A stretch of 40,850 nucleotides of DNA. It comes from Candidatus Woesearchaeota archaeon. GTDB lineage: Archaea; Nanobdellota; Nanobdellia; Pacearchaeales; GW2011-AR1. This document shows, piece by piece, positions 3,782 through 40,850 of this stretch (position 1 is its first letter; every line of letters begins with the position of its first letter). The position numbers and the translations under genes were made by a program. Under the pieces are notes generated by a model. The model searched no databases and had not been told where the DNA came from. It saw only the letters and a list, made by a program, of their open reading frames with translations. The DNA lies in NCBI GenBank assembly GCA_964635935.1, contig CAZWNN010000002.1, positions 1 to 40,850 on the forward strand, in the 5' to 3' direction.

Positions 3782-3795
3782 AAACATTTTAGGTG

Positions 3796-3906
3796 GGACA
3801 TGAAAAGGGGATTTTTGGTAGGGCGCGGTTTGTTAAAAACTGACTATAAACTACTGAGGAAGCGAACGAAGAGATGAGTGAGCGACTGGAGGAATGGAGA
3901 TGATTT
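3796..3906 (+). repeat. Intergenic repeat, family U copy 2
   Basis: Aligns with 1920..2016. Its sub-block AGGAAGCGAACGAAGAGATGAGTGAGCGACT (3857..3886) also resembles 304..336. Confidence 0.6.
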
Positions 3907-4252
3907 CAAATTTTTAATTGGTTATATGATGAGCGCGACCGAAGGTCGCGCCATCGGAGATGATATGGACGAACCTTTAGTTCGCTTATCTCTTGCGTGC
4001 CTAGCGGCACGCCGGGCCGTGCTTCGCACGGTTTAGTATCAATGCGTGGCGGTGGCGGGGGGTTTTCAATCGAAGTTTTTGATAAAACTTTTTTCAAAAA
4101 GTTTTGTTGGGGGGAGAAAAAATCTCACTGGTGGGTTGGGGGTGGTGGTGTGAGATTTTTTCTGGGGGTTTTGGGGGGGCGAGCGTTTAGGTCTCGACTA
4201 TTTTTTATATGATACGAGACCTGGGTGCGAGTTGCGGTTTGTGAAGACTTAA
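3887..4252. repeat. Hairpin-mosaic intergenic repeat, family H copy 1
   Basis: String of short GC-rich hairpins (GCGCGACC-GAAG-GTCGCGC, GTGCC-TAGC-GGCAC, CCGTG-CTTCG-CACGG, AAAACTTTTT/AAAAAGTTTT, GAGAAAAAATCTCAC/GTGAGATTTTTTCT, GGTCTCG/CGAGACC). Blocks are shared with 11016..11215 and 24410..24688. Confidence 0.7.
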
Positions 4253-4585
4253 TTATCTTGTAAAAATCTCACATAATTTTTCTTCAACTTGTTTTATTTT
4301 TTCTTGATTTAGTTTTCCTGCTTTGTAGCTAATTCTTGATTTATGAATTGTGAACAAGATAGAGGGTCTAATAAAACTATCACGATTTATTCCTCCAGAT
4401 TGAAAATCTTTAGATTTTAGTTCTAATAAATCTTGATCAGGTCGAGGTTGTCCGGTAATTTGGGCAAGAATAACATGTCTTCCTTTTGAATTTGCTACAA
4501 CTAAACTTGGTCTTTTTTTAGAAAGATATTTATCTGAAAATGGGAATTGGAAGATTACAACTTCACCTTTTACAAATCCTTCCAT
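4253..4585 (-). CDS. mazF: MazF/PemK-family type II toxin (endoribonuclease)
   Basis: GEVVIFQFPFSD....KKRPSLVV...ILAQITG pattern typical of PemK/MazF. 16-nt overlap with the upstream antitoxin ORF. Confidence 0.75.
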   Translation of the reverse strand: MEGFVKGEVVIFQFPFSDKYLSKKRPSLVVANSKGRHVILAQITGQPRPDQDLLELKSKDFQSGGINRDSFIRPSILFTIHKSRISYKAGKLNQEKIKQVEEKLCEIFTR

Positions 4586-4827
4586 GCTTCATCCTCTTCT
4601 GGAGTGTTCCATGCTTCTGCCAATACATCTTCACTCGCAAGCATGCACATCATAGCCTCACTCATTTCTTTTTCCATTGGTCTCAATTCAACCCTGTCTG
4701 GATAAACTAATATATTCACCTTTTTTCCCTCTTTAAAACCTGCTAGATTTCTCGCTGTACTTGGAATACAAATCTGTCCTTTGCTTGTGATTTTTGCAGT
4801 TCTTATTTCTTTGAGTTCTTCTGACAT
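4570..4827 (-). CDS. mazE: AbrB/MazE/SpoVT-family antitoxin
   Basis: ITSKGQICIPSTARNLAGFKEGKKVNILVYPDRVELRP swapped-hairpin motif. Sits upstream of and overlaps the MazF-like gene. Confidence 0.7.
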   Translation of the reverse strand: MSEELKEIRTAKITSKGQICIPSTARNLAGFKEGKKVNILVYPDRVELRPMEKEMSEAMMCMLASEDVLAEAWNTPEEDEAWKDL

Positions 4828-19854: not shown

Positions 19855-20946
19855 TCAGGCTACGGCGAATCTTAAGATTGCGCCTACGCCTCCAAGATTA
19901 TCAAATTGGATGCCGTCTGTTGTTTCTTTTGTAACTATGTAGATTTCTGTTCCCATGCTGTTGGCGATTTTTGAAAACTGTTTGATTTTTTCCAGGGGCA
20001 TGTCTTTGGAGATTATGAGAGTTTCTGCAGAGCCTTGTTCTAAGCGGATTTTTGTTTCTGTTTCTCCGTAAGCTGTTTTGTTTGGTTCTTTTGCAAGAGT
20101 TAGGAAGAATTTTTCTAAAATCTTTTTTTGTTTGGTTATTTCAAGCTCTGCTAATTCTTCTTGAGATGAGCCAACTAAATCTTTTAATCCTGGAAGGCCG
20201 GTGTCTCCAATGTCTTTTACAGAAATAACTTTGTCTTTTAATTTTGTAACTAAGTTTCCTGTTTCTAGGAATTCGTCTTTTGTTGGAATTGGGCCTCCGA
20301 CTAAGAGGCCTTTTATTTTGTTGTTGTCAAAAAAGTGTTGTTTCATTTGTTCTGCAACTCTTCTGAAAAATTCTTTTGCAAGTCCTTCTGTTATTCTACC
20401 GAAACGAGCTGCACTTTGGCCACCCGCTCTTACTTTTCCAGGAATGCCTGATGTAAGGCGTTGCAAGATGCTAATTCTGTTTCCTTCTAAAATTCCAATT
20501 GTTGCTTCATTTCTTTCAATTATTAATAGTCCGTAGACCTCATCTGTCTCAAGCATTTCTAGGAGTGGTTCTAAGACAAAGGTTTGGTCGCATCTGTACA
20601 TTCTTGTCTTGATTGGAATGTCCGGTTCAATTGCCCAGATTCTTAAGTCTTCTTTTCCTTCAACATCTGAGATATTCCCTGAGAAGAGTGCTAGTCCGTT
20701 CGGCGGGGTTTGTTTGATTGTCTTTAGGTGGCGGCTGATTTTATCAAGAGTGTTGATTACATTTTTTCTCGTTGATGTTGATTTGATATTAGTAGCTGTT
20801 CCTTTTTCATCTTCAATCTGGGTTGTAACCTGGTTTTTGTCAAAGCCTGCTGGGATGTAGACAGTTATTAGCTCTGTGTGCCTACCTCGATATCCCCCTA
20901 GTTCTTTTACAGTTTGCTCTAGTTCGTATTTTTTTGCTTGGTCCAT
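19855..20946 (-). CDS. prf1: Peptide chain release factor aRF1
   Basis: NIKS (TATNIKSTS) and GGQ (VRAGGQSAARF) motifs. ATG at 20946 (MDQAKKYELEQ) preferred over the listed upstream start. Confidence 0.95.
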   Translation of the reverse strand: MDQAKKYELEQTVKELGGYRGRHTELITVYIPAGFDKNQVTTQIEDEKGTATNIKSTSTRKNVINTLDKISRHLKTIKQTPPNGLALFSGNISDVEGKEDLRIWAIEPDIPIKTRMYRCDQTFVLEPLLEMLETDEVYGLLIIERNEATIGILEGNRISILQRLTSGIPGKVRAGGQSAARFGRITEGLAKEFFRRVAEQMKQHFFDNNKIKGLLVGGPIPTKDEFLETGNLVTKLKDKVISVKDIGDTGLPGLKDLVGSSQEELAELEITKQKKILEKFFLTLAKEPNKTAYGETETKIRLEQGSAETLIISKDMPLEKIKQFSKIANSMGTEIYIVTKETTDGIQFDNLGGVGAILRFAVA

Positions 20947-20968
20947 GTTTTGGTTAAGAAAGAGGTGT

Positions 20969-21247
20969 TTATAAAAGTTGACGATATTTGTGAACACGAT
21001 ATATTTCTAATACTTCTGAATAATTATGTTTACCTATCTGTTTTTCGGGAGGGATTAAGGTGTTGAAAAAACCCATTCTATCTGCAGCATCATTAAAATC
21101 TATTATTCCAAAATGATATTTTCCTGTTTTAGAACTTCTGATTAAAACACCTTTTCCATTATGTCTTTTGACGAGGGTTATTACTTTTTTTACTCTTTCT
21201 GCTATCGCTTCTTCATCCTCTGTTTTATTTTCTAAAGATTCTGGCAT
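20969..21247 (-). CDS. Hypothetical small protein
   Basis: 92-aa ORF. No recognised motif. Confidence 0.4.
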   Translation of the reverse strand: MPESLENKTEDEEAIAERVKKVITLVKRHNGKGVLIRSSKTGKYHFGIIDFNDAADRMGFFNTLIPPEKQIGKHNYSEVLEIYRVHKYRQLL

Positions 21248-34973: not shown

Positions 34974-35085
34974 CCCCCTCGCAAAATCCGTTCACTTCGG
35001 CAATTCACAATTCACTCTTGTATAATATTTAAGATAGTCAAAAGCAAATTGTTCACACTCTCACATTTTGCTACCACCATAAAAG
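34974..35085 (+). repeat. Family T repeat copy 2 carrying a nested family S hairpin (copy 4, about 35005..35056)
   Basis: Outer parts CCCCCTCGCAAAATCCGTTCACTTCG ... CACATTTTGCTACCACC match 26874..26930. The inner TTCACAATTCACTCTTG...CAAAAGCAAATTGTTCAC is the S hairpin. Confidence 0.6.
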
Positions 35086-35373
35086 TTTATGATCTCCTAG
35101 GGGAAACCTTTGGCAGTTACTAAACTTTTTGGGTGCGAGAGCGGGAGCGAATCTTTGAGAGCGGAGCTCTAGCAGGAATTATTTATTTCAAATTTCTTCA
35201 CTACTTTCAAATCAACAAAAATTCAAGAAGGTTTAAATAGAGTTTGAAAATCTTTGGTTTTAAAAGTGTTTCGTAAGGTTTTTAATAGGTTTTTTGCGTG
35301 TATGCTTTTATGAATAAAACGGGGGTATATTTAATGGCAGAGGACGAAGCTGAAGAAACTGAAGAGTAGTTTT

Positions 35374-35886
35374 CTAAATCTCTAAAATTAATAGCTCTTC
35401 AAAAAATAATTTTTTTGTTTTTATTATTATTGGTTTGTGTTTTTTTATTTTGTCTTGAGGTGTGTGGCTTGATATGAGAAGGAAGATTTTTCCGTCGGGA
35501 TTTAGATGGGCTTTTGCTTGTTTGATGAATTTTAGGGTTATTTCGTCCCCGTGCTTGCCACCGGTTGTGTCTGGTTTGGAGTCGTGTTTGTGGGCGGGTA
35601 AATATGGGGGGTTGAATGTTATTAGGTCAAACTTGTTTTTTATTTTTTCAAAGAGGTTGGACTTGATTGTGCTGAATCCTAGTTTTTTTGTGTGGGTTAT
35701 TGCTTCTGAATCTATGTCTGCACATGTTATGTTTTGTTTTGGAATTCCTGCTTGTGCTGCTGTTTGTGCTAAGATTCCTGAGCCTGTTCCCATGTCAAGA
35801 TATTTTATGTTTTTGATTTTTAGATTCTTTAGATAATTAGAAAGAAATTCTGCAAAGAAAAATGAGTCTTCTTGTGGTGAGTACAT
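35374..35886 (-). CDS. HemK/PrmC/Mtq2-family SAM-dependent methyltransferase (NPPY)
   Basis: SAM motif I DMGTGSGILA and motif IV FNPPY. The start codon lies 1 nt after the RT stop. Confidence 0.75.
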   Translation of the reverse strand: MYSPQEDSFFFAEFLSNYLKNLKIKNIKYLDMGTGSGILAQTAAQAGIPKQNITCADIDSEAITHTKKLGFSTIKSNLFEKIKNKFDLITFNPPYLPAHKHDSKPDTTGGKHGDEITLKFIKQAKAHLNPDGKIFLLISSHTPQDKIKKHKPIIIKTKKLFFEELLILEI

Positions 35887-35887
35887 T

Positions 35888-36931
35888 TTATTTAATTGAG
35901 TTATTTATCTTAATTACAAGATTTTTCCTTAATTTAAAAGTATTTGCCCATTTTGCATAAGCTTGCCATCCTTGATAACTTTCTAGAATTTTTTCTTTAT
36001 CTATTATTTGACTTCTAAACAAATTAAGTTTGTTTTCCATATTCTTAATGTTTCTTCTTCTTAATAATTTGAAATAATAAAAAATTCTAAAACCGACAAA
36101 ATCAATTCCTTTTGATAATGGAATAATGCGTGATTTCTGTGGGTGAAGTTCTAATTTTAAATTCTCTTTTAGAAATTTGTTTATTTGTTTTTTCCAAATT
36201 TGTAATTGTTCTTTTGATTTATGAAGAAGAATAAAGTCATCAACATAACGTATATAGTATTTTACTTTTAATTTATGTTTGACAAAATAATCTAACTCAT
36301 TGAGATAGAGGTTAGCGAAGAATTGGCTTGTTAAATTTCCTAAGGGCATTCCTTTTTCTTTATATCCATTTTCAAGTATCTTCTTTATTAACCAAATAAC
36401 TTTTTTATCTTTTATTTTTCTTTTAATTATGTTTAACAAAATTTCATGATTTACTTCCTGGAAATAGTGCTTGATATCTGCTTTTAAGCAATAACCTTTT
36501 ATTTGATTATTATTAAACCAGCCATTTAATTTGCCATTTCTTGAAATTTTTTTCATAAACTTATAAAATCTTTTTAAAGCAAATAGATTACCTTTTCCTA
36601 TTCTATTTGCACATGAATCATAAATAAATCTTTTATCAAAAATTGGTTCAAGGATTCTTATTAAAGCATGATGAACAATTCTGTCTCTAAAAGCAGACTT
36701 ACTTATTTTTCGTGTTTTTGGATCTCTTAAAATAAATGTTTTTAGTGGTTTAGGAGAATAAGTCAAGTTTTTTAATTCGTATTGCAATTTCAATAGATTT
36801 TTATACAGATTAGCTTCAAACTCAAGAACATAATTTTTCTTAGTTTTTCCTTTTCGTGCTTTTTTCCATGCAAAGGTTAGATTATCTAAGGAGATAATTT
36901 TATTGTATAAATTTTTATAAGATTTCATCAT
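35888..36931 (-). CDS. DGR-type reverse transcriptase
   Basis: RT motifs include IRYVDDFILL (YVDD) and PLGNLTSQFFANLYLNELD (the I/LGxxxSQ signature of DGR RTs). The TR sits 21 nt upstream of the ATG. Confidence 0.9.
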   Translation of the reverse strand: MMKSYKNLYNKIISLDNLTFAWKKARKGKTKKNYVLEFEANLYKNLLKLQYELKNLTYSPKPLKTFILRDPKTRKISKSAFRDRIVHHALIRILEPIFDKRFIYDSCANRIGKGNLFALKRFYKFMKKISRNGKLNGWFNNNQIKGYCLKADIKHYFQEVNHEILLNIIKRKIKDKKVIWLIKKILENGYKEKGMPLGNLTSQFFANLYLNELDYFVKHKLKVKYYIRYVDDFILLHKSKEQLQIWKKQINKFLKENLKLELHPQKSRIIPLSKGIDFVGFRIFYYFKLLRRRNIKNMENKLNLFRSQIIDKEKILESYQGWQAYAKWANTFKLRKNLVIKINNSIK

Positions 36932-36952
36932 AAGTGTCTTGTGAACTAAGGC

Positions 36953-37035
36953 TATTCCGAAAGCATGACCGTTCCTGTTATCATCATGGTAGTTGCCATT
37001 GACATTAAGCCTGTCGTTGTAGTCGTTGAGCGCGG
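36953..37035 (-). repeat. DGR template repeat (TR)
   Basis: Non-coding copy of the VRs. The sense strand reads ..GCGCTCAACGACTACAACGACAGGCTTAATGTCAATGGCAACTACCATGATGATAACAGGAACGGTCATGCTTTCGGAATA, with 7 AAY codons in the VR frame. Confidence 0.9.
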
Positions 37036-37206
37036 CCAGACATGTAGTCTATTAATTTAAAGTAAATCACCAAAGTTTCAAGTTTCATTTTCATTACTAT
37101 TTGTCACTTTTGAATTTTATGGCTTTTTTAAAAAGCACTATTAACAGACATGTAGCCTTAGTTCATTGGAGAGTGCCTCCCTAAGACAAATTATTAGAAA
37201 AAAGGT

Positions 37207-37235
37207 TATTTATAAACTTAACTTAAAAAAATTTG
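37207..37235 (-). promoter_or_regulatory. Candidate promoter for the TR-RT transcript
   Basis: The minus strand reads CCACAAATTTTTTTAAGTTAAGTTTATAAATA: a CACAA box plus TATA-like boxes, upstream of the 5' arm of the TR-enclosing helix. Confidence 0.3.
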
Positions 37236-37236
37236 T

Positions 37237-37251
37237 GGTGCCTTCGGCACC
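37237..37251 (-). promoter_or_regulatory. GC-rich hairpin 6 nt downstream of VR1 (candidate DGR target-recognition element)
   Basis: GGTGCC-TTC-GGCACC (sense strand GGTGCC-GAA-GGCACC). The TR lacks an equivalent. Confidence 0.6.
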
Positions 37252-37254
37252 TAA

Positions 37255-37965
37255 TTATACCCCGAAAGCATGACCGCCCCAGTCATCAACACGGCAGTCG
37301 CCACCGACACAAAGCCCGCCGTAGTAGCCGTCGAGCGCGGTTACTCTTTGAACAGGAGATTTTCCTTCTTGAATATCTAACCCCCATGTTTTTGGTGGAT
37401 CTTTAAACTCTTCTGAAACTTCTGCTAATCTTTCTGCACCTTCTTGTCCAAAACTTGCAACAACAAATCCATCTTTTGCTAAGGATTCTTTAGTGTGTTC
37501 TCCTATTGAATAACTTCCCTTAGGGGCAAATCTTATGGTTCCATCAGAACTATATAAAATAGGGCTTCCTGCAGGACTTTCACTTAATTTTCTTTCTAAA
37601 TCTTCTTGATCTAAGGGCTGACTTACTCCTATTGCTTCTGGGTCTGATACAACATAAACACCTTTTGAAGTCCATAAATTCTGGTCAAAACTCCATAGCC
37701 ATCTATTTTTCATAATTAAATCTCTGATTTTTGTGATTTCTTCTCTTTCCTTGAAGTCTTCAGGGCCGCAATATGCAGCATGAAGGAGATATGCTGTTTG
37801 TTCTGCAATTGGGAGTGTTAATCCTCTTGCTAAAATTCCTTTTCCTACTGTTGGATAATTATGTGGACCTTGTGAAGGATGAACAAAGATAATGTTTCCA
37901 TCTCTTCCAGGAACTTCTATTTCAGTTCTTCCTCTCCTTACTTCATAAGTTTTTGCTTCTTCCAT
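37255..37965 (-). CDS. DGR target protein 1 (VR at extreme C-terminus)
   Basis: 236 aa, ends ..TALDGYYGGLCVGGDCRVDDWGGHAFGV*. Paralog of 37967..38677. No N-terminal signal or TM. Confidence 0.85.
   Translation of the reverse strand: MEEAKTYEVRRGRTEIEVPGRDGNIIFVHPSQGPHNYPTVGKGILARGLTLPIAEQTAYLLHAAYCGPEDFKEREEITKIRDLIMKNRWLWSFDQNLWTSKGVYVVSDPEAIGVSQPLDQEDLERKLSESPAGSPILYSSDGTIRFAPKGSYSIGEHTKESLAKDGFVVASFGQEGAERLAEVSEEFKDPPKTWGLDIQEGKSPVQRVTALDGYYGGLCVGGDCRVDDWGGHAFGV
37258..37340 (-). repeat. DGR variable repeat VR1
   Basis: 79-nt core 37262..37340 versus TR 36957..37035: 17 differences, all at TR plus-strand T (sense-strand A). Confidence 0.9.
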
Positions 37966-37966
37966 T

Positions 37967-38677
37967 TTATCTTTTTTCTCTCTCAGATTCAGCGCGACTG
38001 GCTTCGCCAGTTTTCAATACCCCGAAAGCATGACCGTTCCTGCTACCACCACGGTAGCTGCCATCGACACCAAGCCCGTCGCCGTAGCCGTCGAGCGCGG
38101 TATATCTCTTATCCTTTACTTCTGAATGATCTACTCCATGAATATAAGTCTCCTTCTTGTCAACAGCTTTAGCAACTTTTTCAACAATAGGGAGCATATC
38201 CTCTCCTCCAACCTGAGCCACTAAATAAGGATTTTTTAAAAGATCTGAAATTGGCATGTATCTTGTTTTAAATCCTAGCTTAACAAGTCTTACTCTTTTA
38301 TCTCCAACCTCAATTAATTTAAGCAATCCAACACTATCTGAAGGCATAGTTCCATCAATATCATCATAAACAAGAACTCCTCCAGGGAATGCTGTGCTTC
38401 TTGTAGAGGTCCATAAGTAATCATCTCTGAAGATTCTTAATAAATCAGCAAAACCTGGTTCATCTTCATTTTGAAGAGCTATATTTAATAAAGAAAATGT
38501 TTGGGCGGTTGTAGGTCTTAATAATCCTTGAGAATCAATTTCTCCCATAACCTTTGGGTAATTGTTTGGACCGACTAAGGGTGTAACAAAGGTTACAATC
38601 TCGCCTCTGTGAGGAATATCGATTTCAGTTCTTGCTATTCTTATTTTTCCTCCGCCCTCTAAGGCTCTTGTTTCCAT
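37967..38677 (-). CDS. DGR target protein 2 (VR followed by a 16-aa tail)
   Basis: 236 aa, ..TALDGYGDGLGVDGSYRGGSRNGHAFGVLKTGEASRAESEREKR*. The stop lies 1 nt before the target1 ATG. Confidence 0.85.
   Translation of the reverse strand: METRALEGGGKIRIARTEIDIPHRGEIVTFVTPLVGPNNYPKVMGEIDSQGLLRPTTAQTFSLLNIALQNEDEPGFADLLRIFRDDYLWTSTRSTAFPGGVLVYDDIDGTMPSDSVGLLKLIEVGDKRVRLVKLGFKTRYMPISDLLKNPYLVAQVGGEDMLPIVEKVAKAVDKKETYIHGVDHSEVKDKRYTALDGYGDGLGVDGSYRGGSRNGHAFGVLKTGEASRAESEREKR
37997..38011 (-). promoter_or_regulatory. GC-rich hairpin 6 nt downstream of VR2 (inside the coding tail)
   Basis: ACTGGC-TTC-GCCAGT. Same loop and same 6-nt spacing from the VR end as the VR1 hairpin. Confidence 0.6.
38018..38100 (-). 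repeat. DGR variable repeat VR2
   Basis: 79-nt core 38022..38100 versus TR: 13 differences, all at TR sense-strand A (all A->G). Confidence 0.9.
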
Positions 38678-38772
38678 AATTATTTTAGAAATTTTTAGTT
38701 TTTAAATCTTTCCCTTGTTGTCTTTTGGGAGAAGTGACATTATTTTAAATAAATAACATTTAATTATTAATT

Positions 38773-38871
38773 ATGGATGAAAATCTTTCAATTGAAACAA
38801 TGTTTGCTTCTGAAGAAGTTTTGAAAAAAGATTGGAATAATAAACTTAATGAAAGATGGAATAACCTCTAA
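38773..38871 (+). CDS. 32-aa ORF resembling the C-terminal tail of AbrB/MazE-type antitoxins (possible remnant)
   Basis: MDENLSIETMFASEEVLKKDWNNKLNERWNNL. Compare MLASEDVLAEAWNTPEEDEAWKDL at the end of 4570..4827. Confidence 0.2.
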   Translation: MDENLSIETMFASEEVLKKDWNNKLNERWNNL

Positions 38872-38881
38872 CTAAACTTTT

Positions 38882-39217
38882 TTATTTAAACAGCGCCTGC
38901 ATTATATCTTCGAAGAAAAATCCGAGGAGGGCGGCTCCTATAAGGATGATAATTGCTAGGATAATCACTATGATGAGCCAGGTTGGAAACTTGGAGCTGG
39001 ATTTTTGTTGGAGTTTTGGGGATTGTTGGGTTGTGAATGAGATTTGAGATGATTGGGGAATTTTTACAGGTTGGATTGTAGATGCTGAAAGTTCTGCAAC
39101 TGCTGCATCTACATCTCTTTGAGCATAACCTGCGTTGGTAAAGCTTTTTTTAACTTTAGTCATGTTTTCTCCTTTTTCTAGGGCGTTTTTAATTGCGCCT
39201 GTTAGTTCGTTTTGCAT
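38882..39217 (-). CDS. Tail-anchored membrane protein, hypothetical
   Basis: C-terminal TM (WLIIVIILAIIILIGAALLGFFF). No recognised motif. Confidence 0.5.
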   Translation of the reverse strand: MQNELTGAIKNALEKGENMTKVKKSFTNAGYAQRDVDAAVAELSASTIQPVKIPQSSQISFTTQQSPKLQQKSSSKFPTWLIIVIILAIIILIGAALLGFFFEDIMQALFK

Positions 39218-39325
39218 GTTTGTTTTTGGGGTTTTTGATTATTAAATGTTACGGGTTACTCCACCCCACCCTAAAAGTTTAGTAAGTGCTAAAATATCCT
39301 TTTAAAAAATAAATCAGACGCTTTG

Positions 39326-39397
39326 CAAAACCAACAGAAATTTAGCCATCTTATATATTCTTGGCTAAATTTCCGCAATAACTATAAAAAATTAATC
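39326..39397 (-). repeat. Family R hairpin element copy 4 (inverted orientation)
   Basis: The reverse complement reads GATTAATTTTTTATAGTTATTGCGGAAAT-TTAGCCA-[loop]-TGGCTAA-ATTTCTGTTGGTTTTG. Confidence 0.65.
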
Positions 39398-39454
39398 ATG
39401 ACTTTAACCCATAAATTAGTTAGGAATTACTAAATTGTGAATAGTGAGCGATAA

Positions 39455-40798
39455 TCAAATTTTCAACACCTTCCCGTCAGTCATGAGATGGGATTGCTTG
39501 TTGAATTTGTAGCCCATTTCTGTGCAAAGTTCTATCATTGGAGTGGTTTTGTCGAGGCCTCCGTGGGCAGGGATTACGTGATTTGGTTTGAGGAGATTAA
39601 GCATGTCTCTTAGGTCTTCTCTTCCTGCGTGGCCTGATACGTGAACATCTCTGAAGATTCTTGCTCTTGATTTTTTTAATCTTGATTCCATTTTTGCAAA
39701 ATTTTCCTGGTTAATTCCGTTAGCAGTTGGGATTACACTTGAAGAGAAAACAATGTTGTCATCTTTGTTTATTTTTAGTGGGAGTTGGTGTCTTGACATT
39801 CTTTCTAAAATTGAGCCTGGCTCTCCTTGGTGGCCTGTGCAGACAATCATGTATTTTCTTCTGTTTTTGTTTACACTATGAAGGGCTTTTTCAAGTTGTC
39901 TTCGGTAACTTGCTACTCTTACTTGTTTTAGAAAAGGTGCAAGTCTTGCTTCTTGCGCTGCTTTTGTGTATTTGTTTAAGCTTCTTCCTAAAAATATCAC
40001 CTCTCTGTTTAATTTTTTTCCAAAGTCAACTATTGATTTTAGTCTTGCGATGTGGGAGGAGAAGGTTGTGACTATTATTCCTGCGTTTCTGTTTTGAATT
40101 GTTAGGAGGACTTCTTCTAAAAGTGTTCTGGCGATTTTTTCTGAGGGTGTTTTTCTATCTGTGCCTGCATAGAGGGAATCTATAACTAAAGCGTGGACTC
40201 CTTGTTTTGCGATTTCCCTGATTTTCCTATAATTCGGCATCAAGCCAAGAACAGGGTTGTCGTCTAATTTGAAGTCGTTTGCATAGAGAAAGACGCCTTG
40301 TTTTGTGTGAACTGCAATTAGAGTTGTTTGGAGTGTTGAGTGGGTTATATTTATGAAGTCAATTTTGTATTTTTGGTTTTTTCCTTGAATGTAAAAAGTT
40401 GTGTTTGGTTTGATTTCTATTATTTTATTTCTTAGTAAGATGTTATTATCTTGAAGAAGAGTATTGAGAACTGCACAAGTAAAAGGTGTCCCGTAGACTG
40501 GGGCGTTGTATCTATCTGATAAAAAACCTATTGCTCCTACGTGGTCGAGATGAGCGTGACCTACAAATTGTGCTCTAACTTTGTGGCGGATTTTTTCAAT
40601 TACGTGGTCATCTGGAATTGCTTTGATGCTTCTAAGTTTTTTTTCTGTGTAGGTAAATTCGTTTTTTTCTTTTTCATCCATCTCAACTATTGCTGGAAGA
40701 AAAAATCCTTCATCAAAAATAAATGCGTCGTCTTCTAGTTCTAGAACTGTCATGTTTTTTCCTACTTCGCTAAAACCGCCTACGGTGTGTATTTTCAT
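39455..40798 (-). CDS. rnj: RNase J (metallo-beta-lactamase / beta-CASP ribonuclease)
   Basis: HAHLDHVG motif, beta-CASP-sized insertion, C-terminal VHVSGHA. About 447 aa, as in archaeal RNase J. Confidence 0.8.
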   Translation of the reverse strand: MKIHTVGGFSEVGKNMTVLELEDDAFIFDEGFFLPAIVEMDEKEKNEFTYTEKKLRSIKAIPDDHVIEKIRHKVRAQFVGHAHLDHVGAIGFLSDRYNAPVYGTPFTCAVLNTLLQDNNILLRNKIIEIKPNTTFYIQGKNQKYKIDFINITHSTLQTTLIAVHTKQGVFLYANDFKLDDNPVLGLMPNYRKIREIAKQGVHALVIDSLYAGTDRKTPSEKIARTLLEEVLLTIQNRNAGIIVTTFSSHIARLKSIVDFGKKLNREVIFLGRSLNKYTKAAQEARLAPFLKQVRVASYRRQLEKALHSVNKNRRKYMIVCTGHQGEPGSILERMSRHQLPLKINKDDNIVFSSSVIPTANGINQENFAKMESRLKKSRARIFRDVHVSGHAGREDLRDMLNLLKPNHVIPAHGGLDKTTPMIELCTEMGYKFNKQSHLMTDGKVLKI

Positions 40799-40850
40799 GT
40801 TCTCTTTTATTTTTATTGTTATTTTGTGTTTTTATATGTTTTTAGTGGAG

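Follow-up and report, generated by a model that had tools for sequence, protein, structure and literature searches.

A Probably Active, Avd-Less Diversity-Generating Retroelement of a DPANN Archaeon and a Possible Priming Role for Its RT-16 RNA

A 40,850-nucleotide (nt) stretch of DNA from a Candidatus Woesearchaeota archaeon (contig CAZWNN010000002.1 of assembly GCA_964635935.1; hereafter, the window) contains what we regard, with a probability of roughly 85%, as an active, chromosomal diversity-generating retroelement (DGR) of the type occurring in DPANN archaea (Pace-, Woese- and Nanoarchaeota) and lacking the accessory protein Avd. On the minus strand, to which all coordinates of the cassette refer, a list of open reading frames (ORFs), a repeat finder and Rfam together place its parts in the order target gene 2, target gene 1, RT-16 RNA, template repeat (TR) and reverse transcriptase (RT) gene. 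The locus is an unusually clean example of a DGR, being complete, possessing two targets and existing as two natural alleles that indicate activity. It also offers a possible role for RT-16, an RNA that lies directly 5′ of the TR, appears to pair with the bases just 3′ of it and may prime cDNA synthesis in an Avd-independent manner.

Organization of the Cassette

The repeat finder returned a single direct-repeat family of three 83-nt copies, comprising the TR (37035..36953) and two variable repeats, VR1 (37340..37258) and VR2 (38100..38018). The TR has 27 adenines, seven AAY codons and an end, GTCATGCTTTCGGAATA, that resembles the initiation of mutagenic homing sequence in its template form (IMH*), while both VRs have IMH-like ends, that of VR2 being GTCATGCTTTCGGGGTA. 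In an exact, ungapped comparison, TR adenines were the site of all 19 mismatches between TR and VR1 and all 15 between TR and VR2. By our own arithmetic, the chance that 34 of 34 mismatches would fall on TR adenines (27 of 83 bases) is ~0.325^34, or ~1e-17. The TR lies outside the target ORFs, adjoins the RT gene and is non-coding in its own context; none of its codons is able to mutate to a stop, and ~5e14 protein variants are possible.

Each target gene encodes a protein of 236 amino acids (aa). VR1 runs up to the stop codon of target gene 1 (37965..37255), while 51 nt separate the end of VR2 from the stop codon of target gene 2 (38677..37967), such that 16 residues follow VR2 in the latter protein. 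An IMH-like 18-mer, GGTCATGCTTTCGGGGTA, was found solely at the ends of the two VRs, both of which carry GGGG, and the GGAA form of this 18-mer was found solely at the end of the TR. Allowing up to three mismatches, a search of the window with the 18-mer gave three matches where 0.02 were expected. As these were just the three known copies, the presence of a third VR was ruled out.

A hairpin with a GAA triloop occurs 6–7 nt 3′ of each VR, and no hairpin was found after the TR. The VR2 hairpin (CTGGC-GAA-GCCAG, 38010..37998) starts 7 nt past VR2, inside the target 2 ORF. Since VR1 reaches the target 1 stop codon, its hairpin (GGTGCC-GAA-GGCACC, followed by a T-run, 37251..37237) is intergenic, and it is the DGR target-site hairpin and likely also the terminator of the target operon.

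An earlier note on this DNA had described a complete DGR with two tandem targets, and this description holds: TR/VR pairs, a DGR-type RT, IMH and IMH* ends, and hairpins are all present. Its ORF coordinates, TR position and repeat length were exact, and the mismatches proved to be confined to template adenines, as it had claimed, with no non-adenine mismatch seen.

Identity of the Reverse Transcriptase

The RT gene (36931..35888) encodes a 347-aa protein in which the YVDD and LGNLTSQ motifs reported earlier are both present, the second fitting the motif 4 pattern [I/L]GxxxSQ of DGR-clade RTs. The protein matches RVT_1 of Pfam (E 1.9e-20), and its best match among all PDB chains is 8ub7_A (E 5.9e-43, 150 bits, residues 2–334), compared with ~1e-21 and 80 bits for group II intron RTs. 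The 8ub7_A chain, a 328-aa RT, is identified by its sequence and entry series as bRT of Bordetella phage, from the cryo-EM study of bRT with Avd and RNA. On these comparisons the window’s RT is assigned to the DGR clade and resembles bRT throughout its length. That it is instead an RT of a group II intron, retron or defence system, beside repeats that arose coincidentally from paralogous genes, is exceedingly improbable. Such a reading could draw on the group II RT/maturase model TIGR04416, the top NCBIfam match (E 3e-43), and on several PADLOC DRT models that also match, but TIGR04416 attained only 148 bits against its cut-off of 300, and the retron St85 RT model 50 bits against 235. Moreover, Rfam detected no group II intron or retron RNA in the window, RT-16 being its sole match, and the TR, non-coding in its own context, differs from both VRs at adenines only. 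The alternative affiliations that the earlier note had listed as possible refutations are thus not what the best PDB match and the sub-cut-off models suggest.

Activity in Nature

Clusters built at 90% identity for targets 1 and 2 contained one other member each, and these partners are identical to the window’s proteins outside the VR, with five (target 1) and seven (target 2) residue differences inside it. Both partners are encoded by one contig, L159 (European Nucleotide Archive assembly ERZ27248922), which aligns without gaps to positions 40850..35011 of the window over 5,840 bp with 15 differences. VR2 accounts for nine of these and VR1 for the other six, and all 15 are at TR-adenine positions; the TR, RT-16, the RT gene and all flanking genes are identical. 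The earlier note had proposed a check for VR microheterogeneity, and this comparison between assemblies provides one. Because the differences are confined to VR positions templated by adenine, both VRs are undergoing rewriting in nature, and the element is taken to be currently active.

The opposing view, that the cassette is a fossil whose VRs diversified in the past and which is now dead, would be in keeping with the many target-family members that have no RT within 6 kb and with the partial DGRs known in nanoarchaea (PMC4372165). It is nevertheless highly unlikely here, with an intact RT ORF bearing YVDD, an intact TR, IMH and hairpins, and two alleles otherwise identical over 5.8 kb that differ at 15 adenine-templated VR sites.

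The RT-16 RNA and Its Promoter-Like Box

The interval between target gene 1 and the TR was previously described as a 215-nt non-coding spacer. Non-coding it is, but it is no mere spacer, as it holds a promoter-like box and an RT-16 RNA (Rfam RF03019, 37186..37039). With 102 bits (E 1.4e-15), the latter scored well over the gathering threshold of 50; it spans model positions 1–158 and ends 3 nt before the TR. The RT-1 to RT-19 motifs were defined as RT-associated RNAs, of which only RT-10, representing the Sp region of the BPP-1 element, was tied to DGRs (PMC5737381). No function was found assigned to RT-16 in the literature searched.

Eleven related RT-bearing DPANN loci (L002, L004, L011, L014, L020, L021, L022, L025, L027, L028 and L036) likewise contain an RT-16 that reaches the gathering score; TR/VR pairs in them were called by a finder of adenine-only runs. 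In nine of the 11, a TR adjoining the RT gene was called, and RT-16 lies immediately 5′ of this TR. In L025, it lies upstream of the RT gene and no TR was called, while L022 has a convergent layout, with the RT gene at 187–1179 on the plus strand and RT-16 (1692–1825), TR (1600–1690) and VR (2030–2120) on the minus strand. This opposite-strand arrangement indicates that the RNA module is separable from the RT mRNA. RT-16 was not found in relatives from the candidate phyla radiation (CPR) whose RTs are 35–40% identical to that of the window.

A scan of species-representative genomes with the RT-16 core pattern gave at least 119 stretches, and nearly all of the 80 records listed belonged to Woese-, Pace-, Nano-, Micr- or Aenigmarchaeota. 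Among the 119 core matches listed, 82 have the start of a DGR-type RT gene 121–339 nt downstream, 12 lie at the edge of a locus and 24 are without an RT by the criteria used. Just six of the listed matches are in loci possessing the window’s target family; the RT-16/TR/RT module is thus employed with a wide variety of targets. The RT-less matches (L044, L051, L071, L075, L076, L078 and others), for which no DGR-type RT starts in the next 600 nt, may represent orphan RT-16/TR units, units with more distant RTs or a different layout. Core matches were also present in the genomes of SCGC AAA011-D5 and -G17, which are DUSEL4 cells.

Upstream of RT-16 in the window is a putative TATA-like box, TTTATAAA (37216..37209), situated 30 nt from the RNA’s 5′ end. 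Of 12 Rfam-delimited units, 11 have a TTTAWW box 29–33 nt upstream of RT-16, seven of these at exactly −30, a position that would fit an archaeal TATA box directing transcription from the first base of RT-16.

Other Rfam motifs were encountered in related loci. An Omnitrophota metagenome-assembled genome (MAG; locus L029) encodes a DGR-type RT (294–1307) that is 50% identical to the window’s and possesses an RT-14 motif (1493–1649) downstream rather than upstream of the gene; the layout of DGR RNAs may vary with the RT motif present. A Paceibacteria MAG (L039) has an Rfam LOOT RNA (3790–3913, 83.8 bits) ~2.3 kb past a CPR DGR-type RT.

A Probable Covarying Helix Around the Template Repeat

The TR and the start codon of the RT are only 21 nt apart, and much of this interval is complementary to RT-16. 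A segment termed C1, UAGCCUUAGUUCA (36954..36942, including the last two bases of the TR), is the perfect 13-bp complement of UGAACUAAGGCUA (37165..37153), a stretch inside RT-16 that combines strand B and box 1; that is, the 3′ strand of the first hairpin in the Rfam model plus the conserved GCUA of its GCUACAYG box. The last A of this stretch (37153) is the proposed priming adenosine. C1 is followed by a single C and then by C2 (AAGACA, 36940..36935), which ends 6 nt before the RT start codon and complements UGUCUU, the first bases of the presumed transcript, so that the 20-nt segment 36954..36935 is predicted to pair with both strand B/box 1 and the transcript’s 5′ end. Minimum free energy and centroid folds of 37188..36929 each contain both helices.

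Covariation was assessed in 70 non-redundant units whose anchors were picked independently of the pairing itself, box 1 being located by its P2 partner and the downstream strand by the final GAAUR ahead of the RT start codon. Statistics were based on helix counts in a fixed register in place of RNAduplex energies, which on long flanks were noisy (−26.7 kcal/mol for cognate versus −22.5 for non-cognate strands). A C1 helix of at least 8 bp, with one mismatch allowed, formed in 74% of cognate versus 23% of non-cognate combinations, and one of at least 10 bp in 56% versus 8.5% (permutation z = 17). Standard pairs filled 76.8% of cells in cognate combinations compared with 60.0 ± 1.2% after shuffling, and cells changed on both sides numbered 212 compared with 92 ± 10; in neither case did any of 500 shuffles reach the cognate value. 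Slid registers paired 23–46% of cells. Two-sided changes occurred at 10 of the 12 pairs of the C1 helix in the gapless alignment. This covariation evidence suggests that a helix links RT-16 with the bases directly following the TR on its 3′ side, thereby closing the TR into a loop.

A bimodal distribution seen when strictly contiguous helices were counted was due to a C-A mismatch conserved at the third pair, adjacent to the proposed priming site, where UAACC or UGACC stands opposite GGCUA or GGCCA. The window’s unit has C-G at this pair.

Accessory Genes

The Avd-less character attributed to the cassette in the earlier note was borne out across the clade. No Avd ORF is present in the cassette, the interval between TR and targets being RT-16 with no plausible ORF, and no Avd-like Pfam match was obtained among 11 small ORFs of the window. 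In BLASTP clustering of 78 related RT loci, no small-ORF family recurred in more than six of them, and the two most populous such families proved to be fragments of RTs and targets. A small Avd-like ORF in the former spacer was considered and rejected, as the longest ORF is 29–35 aa and overlaps RT-16.

A Possible Mechanism for Avd-Independent Priming

In the BPP-1 DGR, the RT depends on Avd and on an Sp RNA of 140 nt located 3′ of the TR. Residue A56 of Sp, which terminates a short duplex formed with the bases 3′ of the first templated nucleotide, serves as the primer of cDNA synthesis via its 2′-OH, and a duplex of sequences upstream and downstream of the TR constitutes the stop (bioRxiv 10.1101/2023.10.23.563531). 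A permuted version of this arrangement can be envisioned for the archaeal element. The TATA-like box would drive a single transcript comprising RT-16, the TR, the 20-nt tail with C1 and C2, and the RT ORF. The tail would pair back onto the 5′ part of RT-16, which would close the TR into a loop. This would place the box-1 A at the end of the duplex and across from the U of GGAAU, at the TR’s 3′ edge, with the consequence that the first templated bases would be the AA of IMH*, and by analogy with A56 of Sp this adenosine would prime cDNA synthesis. The long stem of RT-16, which ends 8 nt before the TR, could act as the stop at the TR’s 5′ edge. Finally, the cDNA, mutagenized at adenines, would replace VR1 or VR2 under the guidance of the IMH and hairpin. 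Thus, RT-16, placed 5′ of the TR and without Avd, may do the jobs that Sp and Avd share in BPP-1.

The proposal that RT-16 binds the RT, supplies the primer and provides the stop in an Avd-independent, permuted DGR machine, here and in DPANN DGRs more widely, is made by analogy, and we rate it as close to an even chance, if perhaps slightly under. It is suggested by the permuted, BPP-1-like geometry, by the sarcin-ricin-like loops that have been reported in both RT-16 and RT-10 (PMC13085918) and by the lack of a conserved accessory gene. Should it be true, an orphan Rfam family would gain a function, and a minimal, two-component system of targeted mutagenesis, consisting of an RT and an RNA, would come to light. 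A priming role would also provide a testable mechanism for Avd-less DGRs, and the RT-plus-RNA module of ~1.3 kb would be attractive for targeted protein diversification.

Several considerations weigh against this proposal and the wider interpretation of the locus. The transcript start, the long-range helix and priming from the box-1 A are steps that we infer, and the invariance of that adenosine proves nothing, since it was fixed by the search pattern. In 24 of the 70 units, C stands opposite A at pair 3 of the main helix, and the C2/5′-end helix, found in 10 of 12 Rfam-delimited units, does not exceed non-cognate controls. In the Rfam model, RT-16 begins with a local hairpin, P1, which competes with the long-range pairing, although both may form. 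Avd or another cofactor could be encoded beyond the window’s 40 kb, and very divergent small proteins could escape BLASTP clustering. As for the activity of the element, the two assemblies may derive from related samples, and the 15 differences therefore show diversification rather than its rate. Lastly, the structural model of target 1 gave no significant Foldseek match in PDB or BFVD and only weak matches to C-type lectins.

Some of these same points favor a different role for RT-16, namely that of a locally folded 5′ leader or regulator, with priming carried out through RNA in the RT coding region and/or with an Avd-like protein supplied in trans. The local P1 hairpin of the Rfam consensus, the non-significant C2 helix and a view limited to 40 kb are all compatible with such a leader, as are the inactivity of bRT without Avd and the occurrence of Avd-like proteins in most DGRs (bioRxiv 10.1101/2023.10.23.563531). 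Counting against a leader, however, are the covarying helix that links RT-16 to the bases directly 3′ of the TR and the distance of only 21 nt from the TR to the RT start codon. In L022, moreover, RT-16 and the TR are opposite the RT strand, which leaves the TR with no RT-coding RNA after it; across the 78 related RT loci, accessory ORFs show no conservation; and the loops reported in both RT-16 and RT-10 likewise count against a leader. The leader is accordingly considered unlikely, if still a serious contender.

Target Proteins

Targets 1 and 2 are 31% identical and, on sequence grounds, are considered paralogues of one orphan family. Neither matched Pfam, NCBIfam or PADLOC, and a profile of the family found no match among PDB sequences, AvpA included. 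The earlier note’s description of small targets without signal peptides was confirmed, in that no obvious signal peptide or membrane segment was detected in either 236-aa protein. The family comprises 77 close homologues, all organism-named ones being from DPANN archaea, and 860 cluster representatives (50% identity) at E ≤ 1e-3. Across it, the last ~25 residues are hypervariable while GHAFGV is kept.

The AlphaFold model of target 2 (pLDDT 85.5) matched AvpA (5IOO_A) in Foldseek with E 5.4e-5, probability 1.00 and TM 0.58/0.64 at 14% identity, followed by many C-type lectin domains, which is in accord with the fold that the earlier note had suggested looking for by structure prediction. Its variable residues are in the last strands, with the final strand, GHAFGV, fixed by the IMH. 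The model of target 1 had a pLDDT of 94.6. Given the target 2 match, the family is predicted to possess an AvpA-like C-type lectin scaffold that is invisible at the sequence level, which brings a large family of orphans within the AvpA-type lectin fold.

Members of the target family also occur with no RT within 6 kb (L012, 6687–6730; L006, 5452–5490; L001; L005; L008). These still end in ..TTYGGGGTA, some with a GAA-loop hairpin, and may be remote targets of another DGR or relics.

Comparison with Known Systems

DGRs have been known from DPANN and CPR lineages at large since 2017. The class is not new in DPANN archaea, as the earlier note had already conceded, nanoarchaeal DGRs having been described in 2015 from DUSEL4 with a GGGG/GGAA IMH signature and in-gene GRA-loop hairpins (Paul et al. 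2015, PMC4372165). The resemblance between the DUSEL4 elements and the present one is considerable: both are archaeal chromosomal cassettes in DPANN genomes, with IMH ..GGGGT versus IMH* ..GGAAT, a GRA-triloop hairpin past the VR (in-gene here for target 2), a short, AAY-rich VR of ~27 codons and orphan targets without signal peptides. In the window, however, the target 1 VR reaches the stop codon and its hairpin is intergenic, and whereas small ORFs of Avd-like size and charge were flagged between target gene and RT in DUSEL4 (PMC4372165), that place is occupied here by RT-16.

The BPP-1 DGR (mtd-avd-TR-Sp-brt) shares with the archaeal element a homologous RT, adenine-only transfer from TR to VR, IMH and IMH* ends, a hairpin after the VR and a target of C-type lectin fold with a C-terminal VR whose last strand is IMH-encoded. 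It also shares a structured RNA beside the TR and, if the proposed pairing holds, a duplex of sequences upstream and downstream of the TR. Unlike BPP-1, the window’s cassette has no avd gene, possesses two targets, and is cellular rather than phage-borne, with targets that are not tail fibres. The structured RNAs differ as well, RT-16 being 5′ of the TR here and the RT-10 Sp 3′ of it in BPP-1; Rfam found no RT-10 match in the window, where the gap between TR and RT is 21 nt. Target 2 superposes on AvpA (Handa et al. 2016, PMC5006420; PDB 5IOO), yet its family has no detectable sequence similarity to that protein or to any other solved chain.

Gene order and the absence of accessory genes also have precedents. 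VR-VR-TR-RT is given as the second most common cassette order, with 95 DGRs, in one survey (PMC11661182), and in another (Wu et al. 2018, PMC5758913), the accessory-free TR-RT architecture A makes up 29% of 372 curated DGRs and Avd-less lineages are noted. The window’s cassette thus resembles architecture A1 of the latter survey (PMC5758913) and the VR-VR-TR-RT order of the former (PMC11661182), whereas neither an associated RNA nor Avd-less priming is described in the portions available of the two. Since nanoarchaeal DGRs, this order, accessory-free cassettes and the AvpA fold have all been published, the locus is an ordinary DPANN DGR in kind.

What appears new relative to the literature searched is the assignment of RT-16 directly 5′ of the TR in DPANN DGRs, the promoter-like box of this RNA, and the covarying TR-closing helix together with the permuted-priming model. 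The published RT-16 family (RF03019; Weinberg et al. 2017, PMC5737381) is matched here at full length, and to its description the present analysis adds that in DPANN DGRs it has a TATA-like box on one side and the TR on the other, and that its first hairpin is complementary to bases 3′ of the TR.

Genomic Context

The window is part of an archaeal chromosome, encoding MCM, aRF1, a RadA-like protein, Rad50, Mre11, a topoisomerase and RNase J. No tRNA genes were found in it, and a tRNA-linked integration site is therefore not indicated.

Immediately past the RT gene is a methyltransferase gene (35886..35374, minus strand), which had led the earlier note to call the cassette methyltransferase-linked. 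With its start codon one base past the RT stop and on the same strand, a functional accessory of the DGR might be imagined, but this is very improbable. The protein passes the HemK2/MTQ2 model (TIGR00537; 90.7 bits against a cut-off of 87), and the window also encodes an aRF1 homologue (20997..19855, minus strand), the kind of release factor that HemK2/MTQ2 methyltransferases modify. Furthermore, two related loci (L007 and L019) have RNase J, methyltransferase and Mre11 homologues in the same order and on one strand with no RT, and, L159 aside, no methyltransferase ORF recurs beside the other 76 related RT loci. Because gene order is kept in these two loci without the RT, the methyltransferase looks to be a housekeeping bystander, and the cassette looks inserted between its gene and that for a 111-aa membrane protein; the link claimed earlier is thus not upheld.

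Elsewhere in the window, an overlapping toxin–antitoxin pair is encoded on the minus strand, consisting of a MazF/PemK toxin (4253..4585; Pfam E 4.9e-13) and a MazE antitoxin (4570..4827; Pfam E 5.1e-6).

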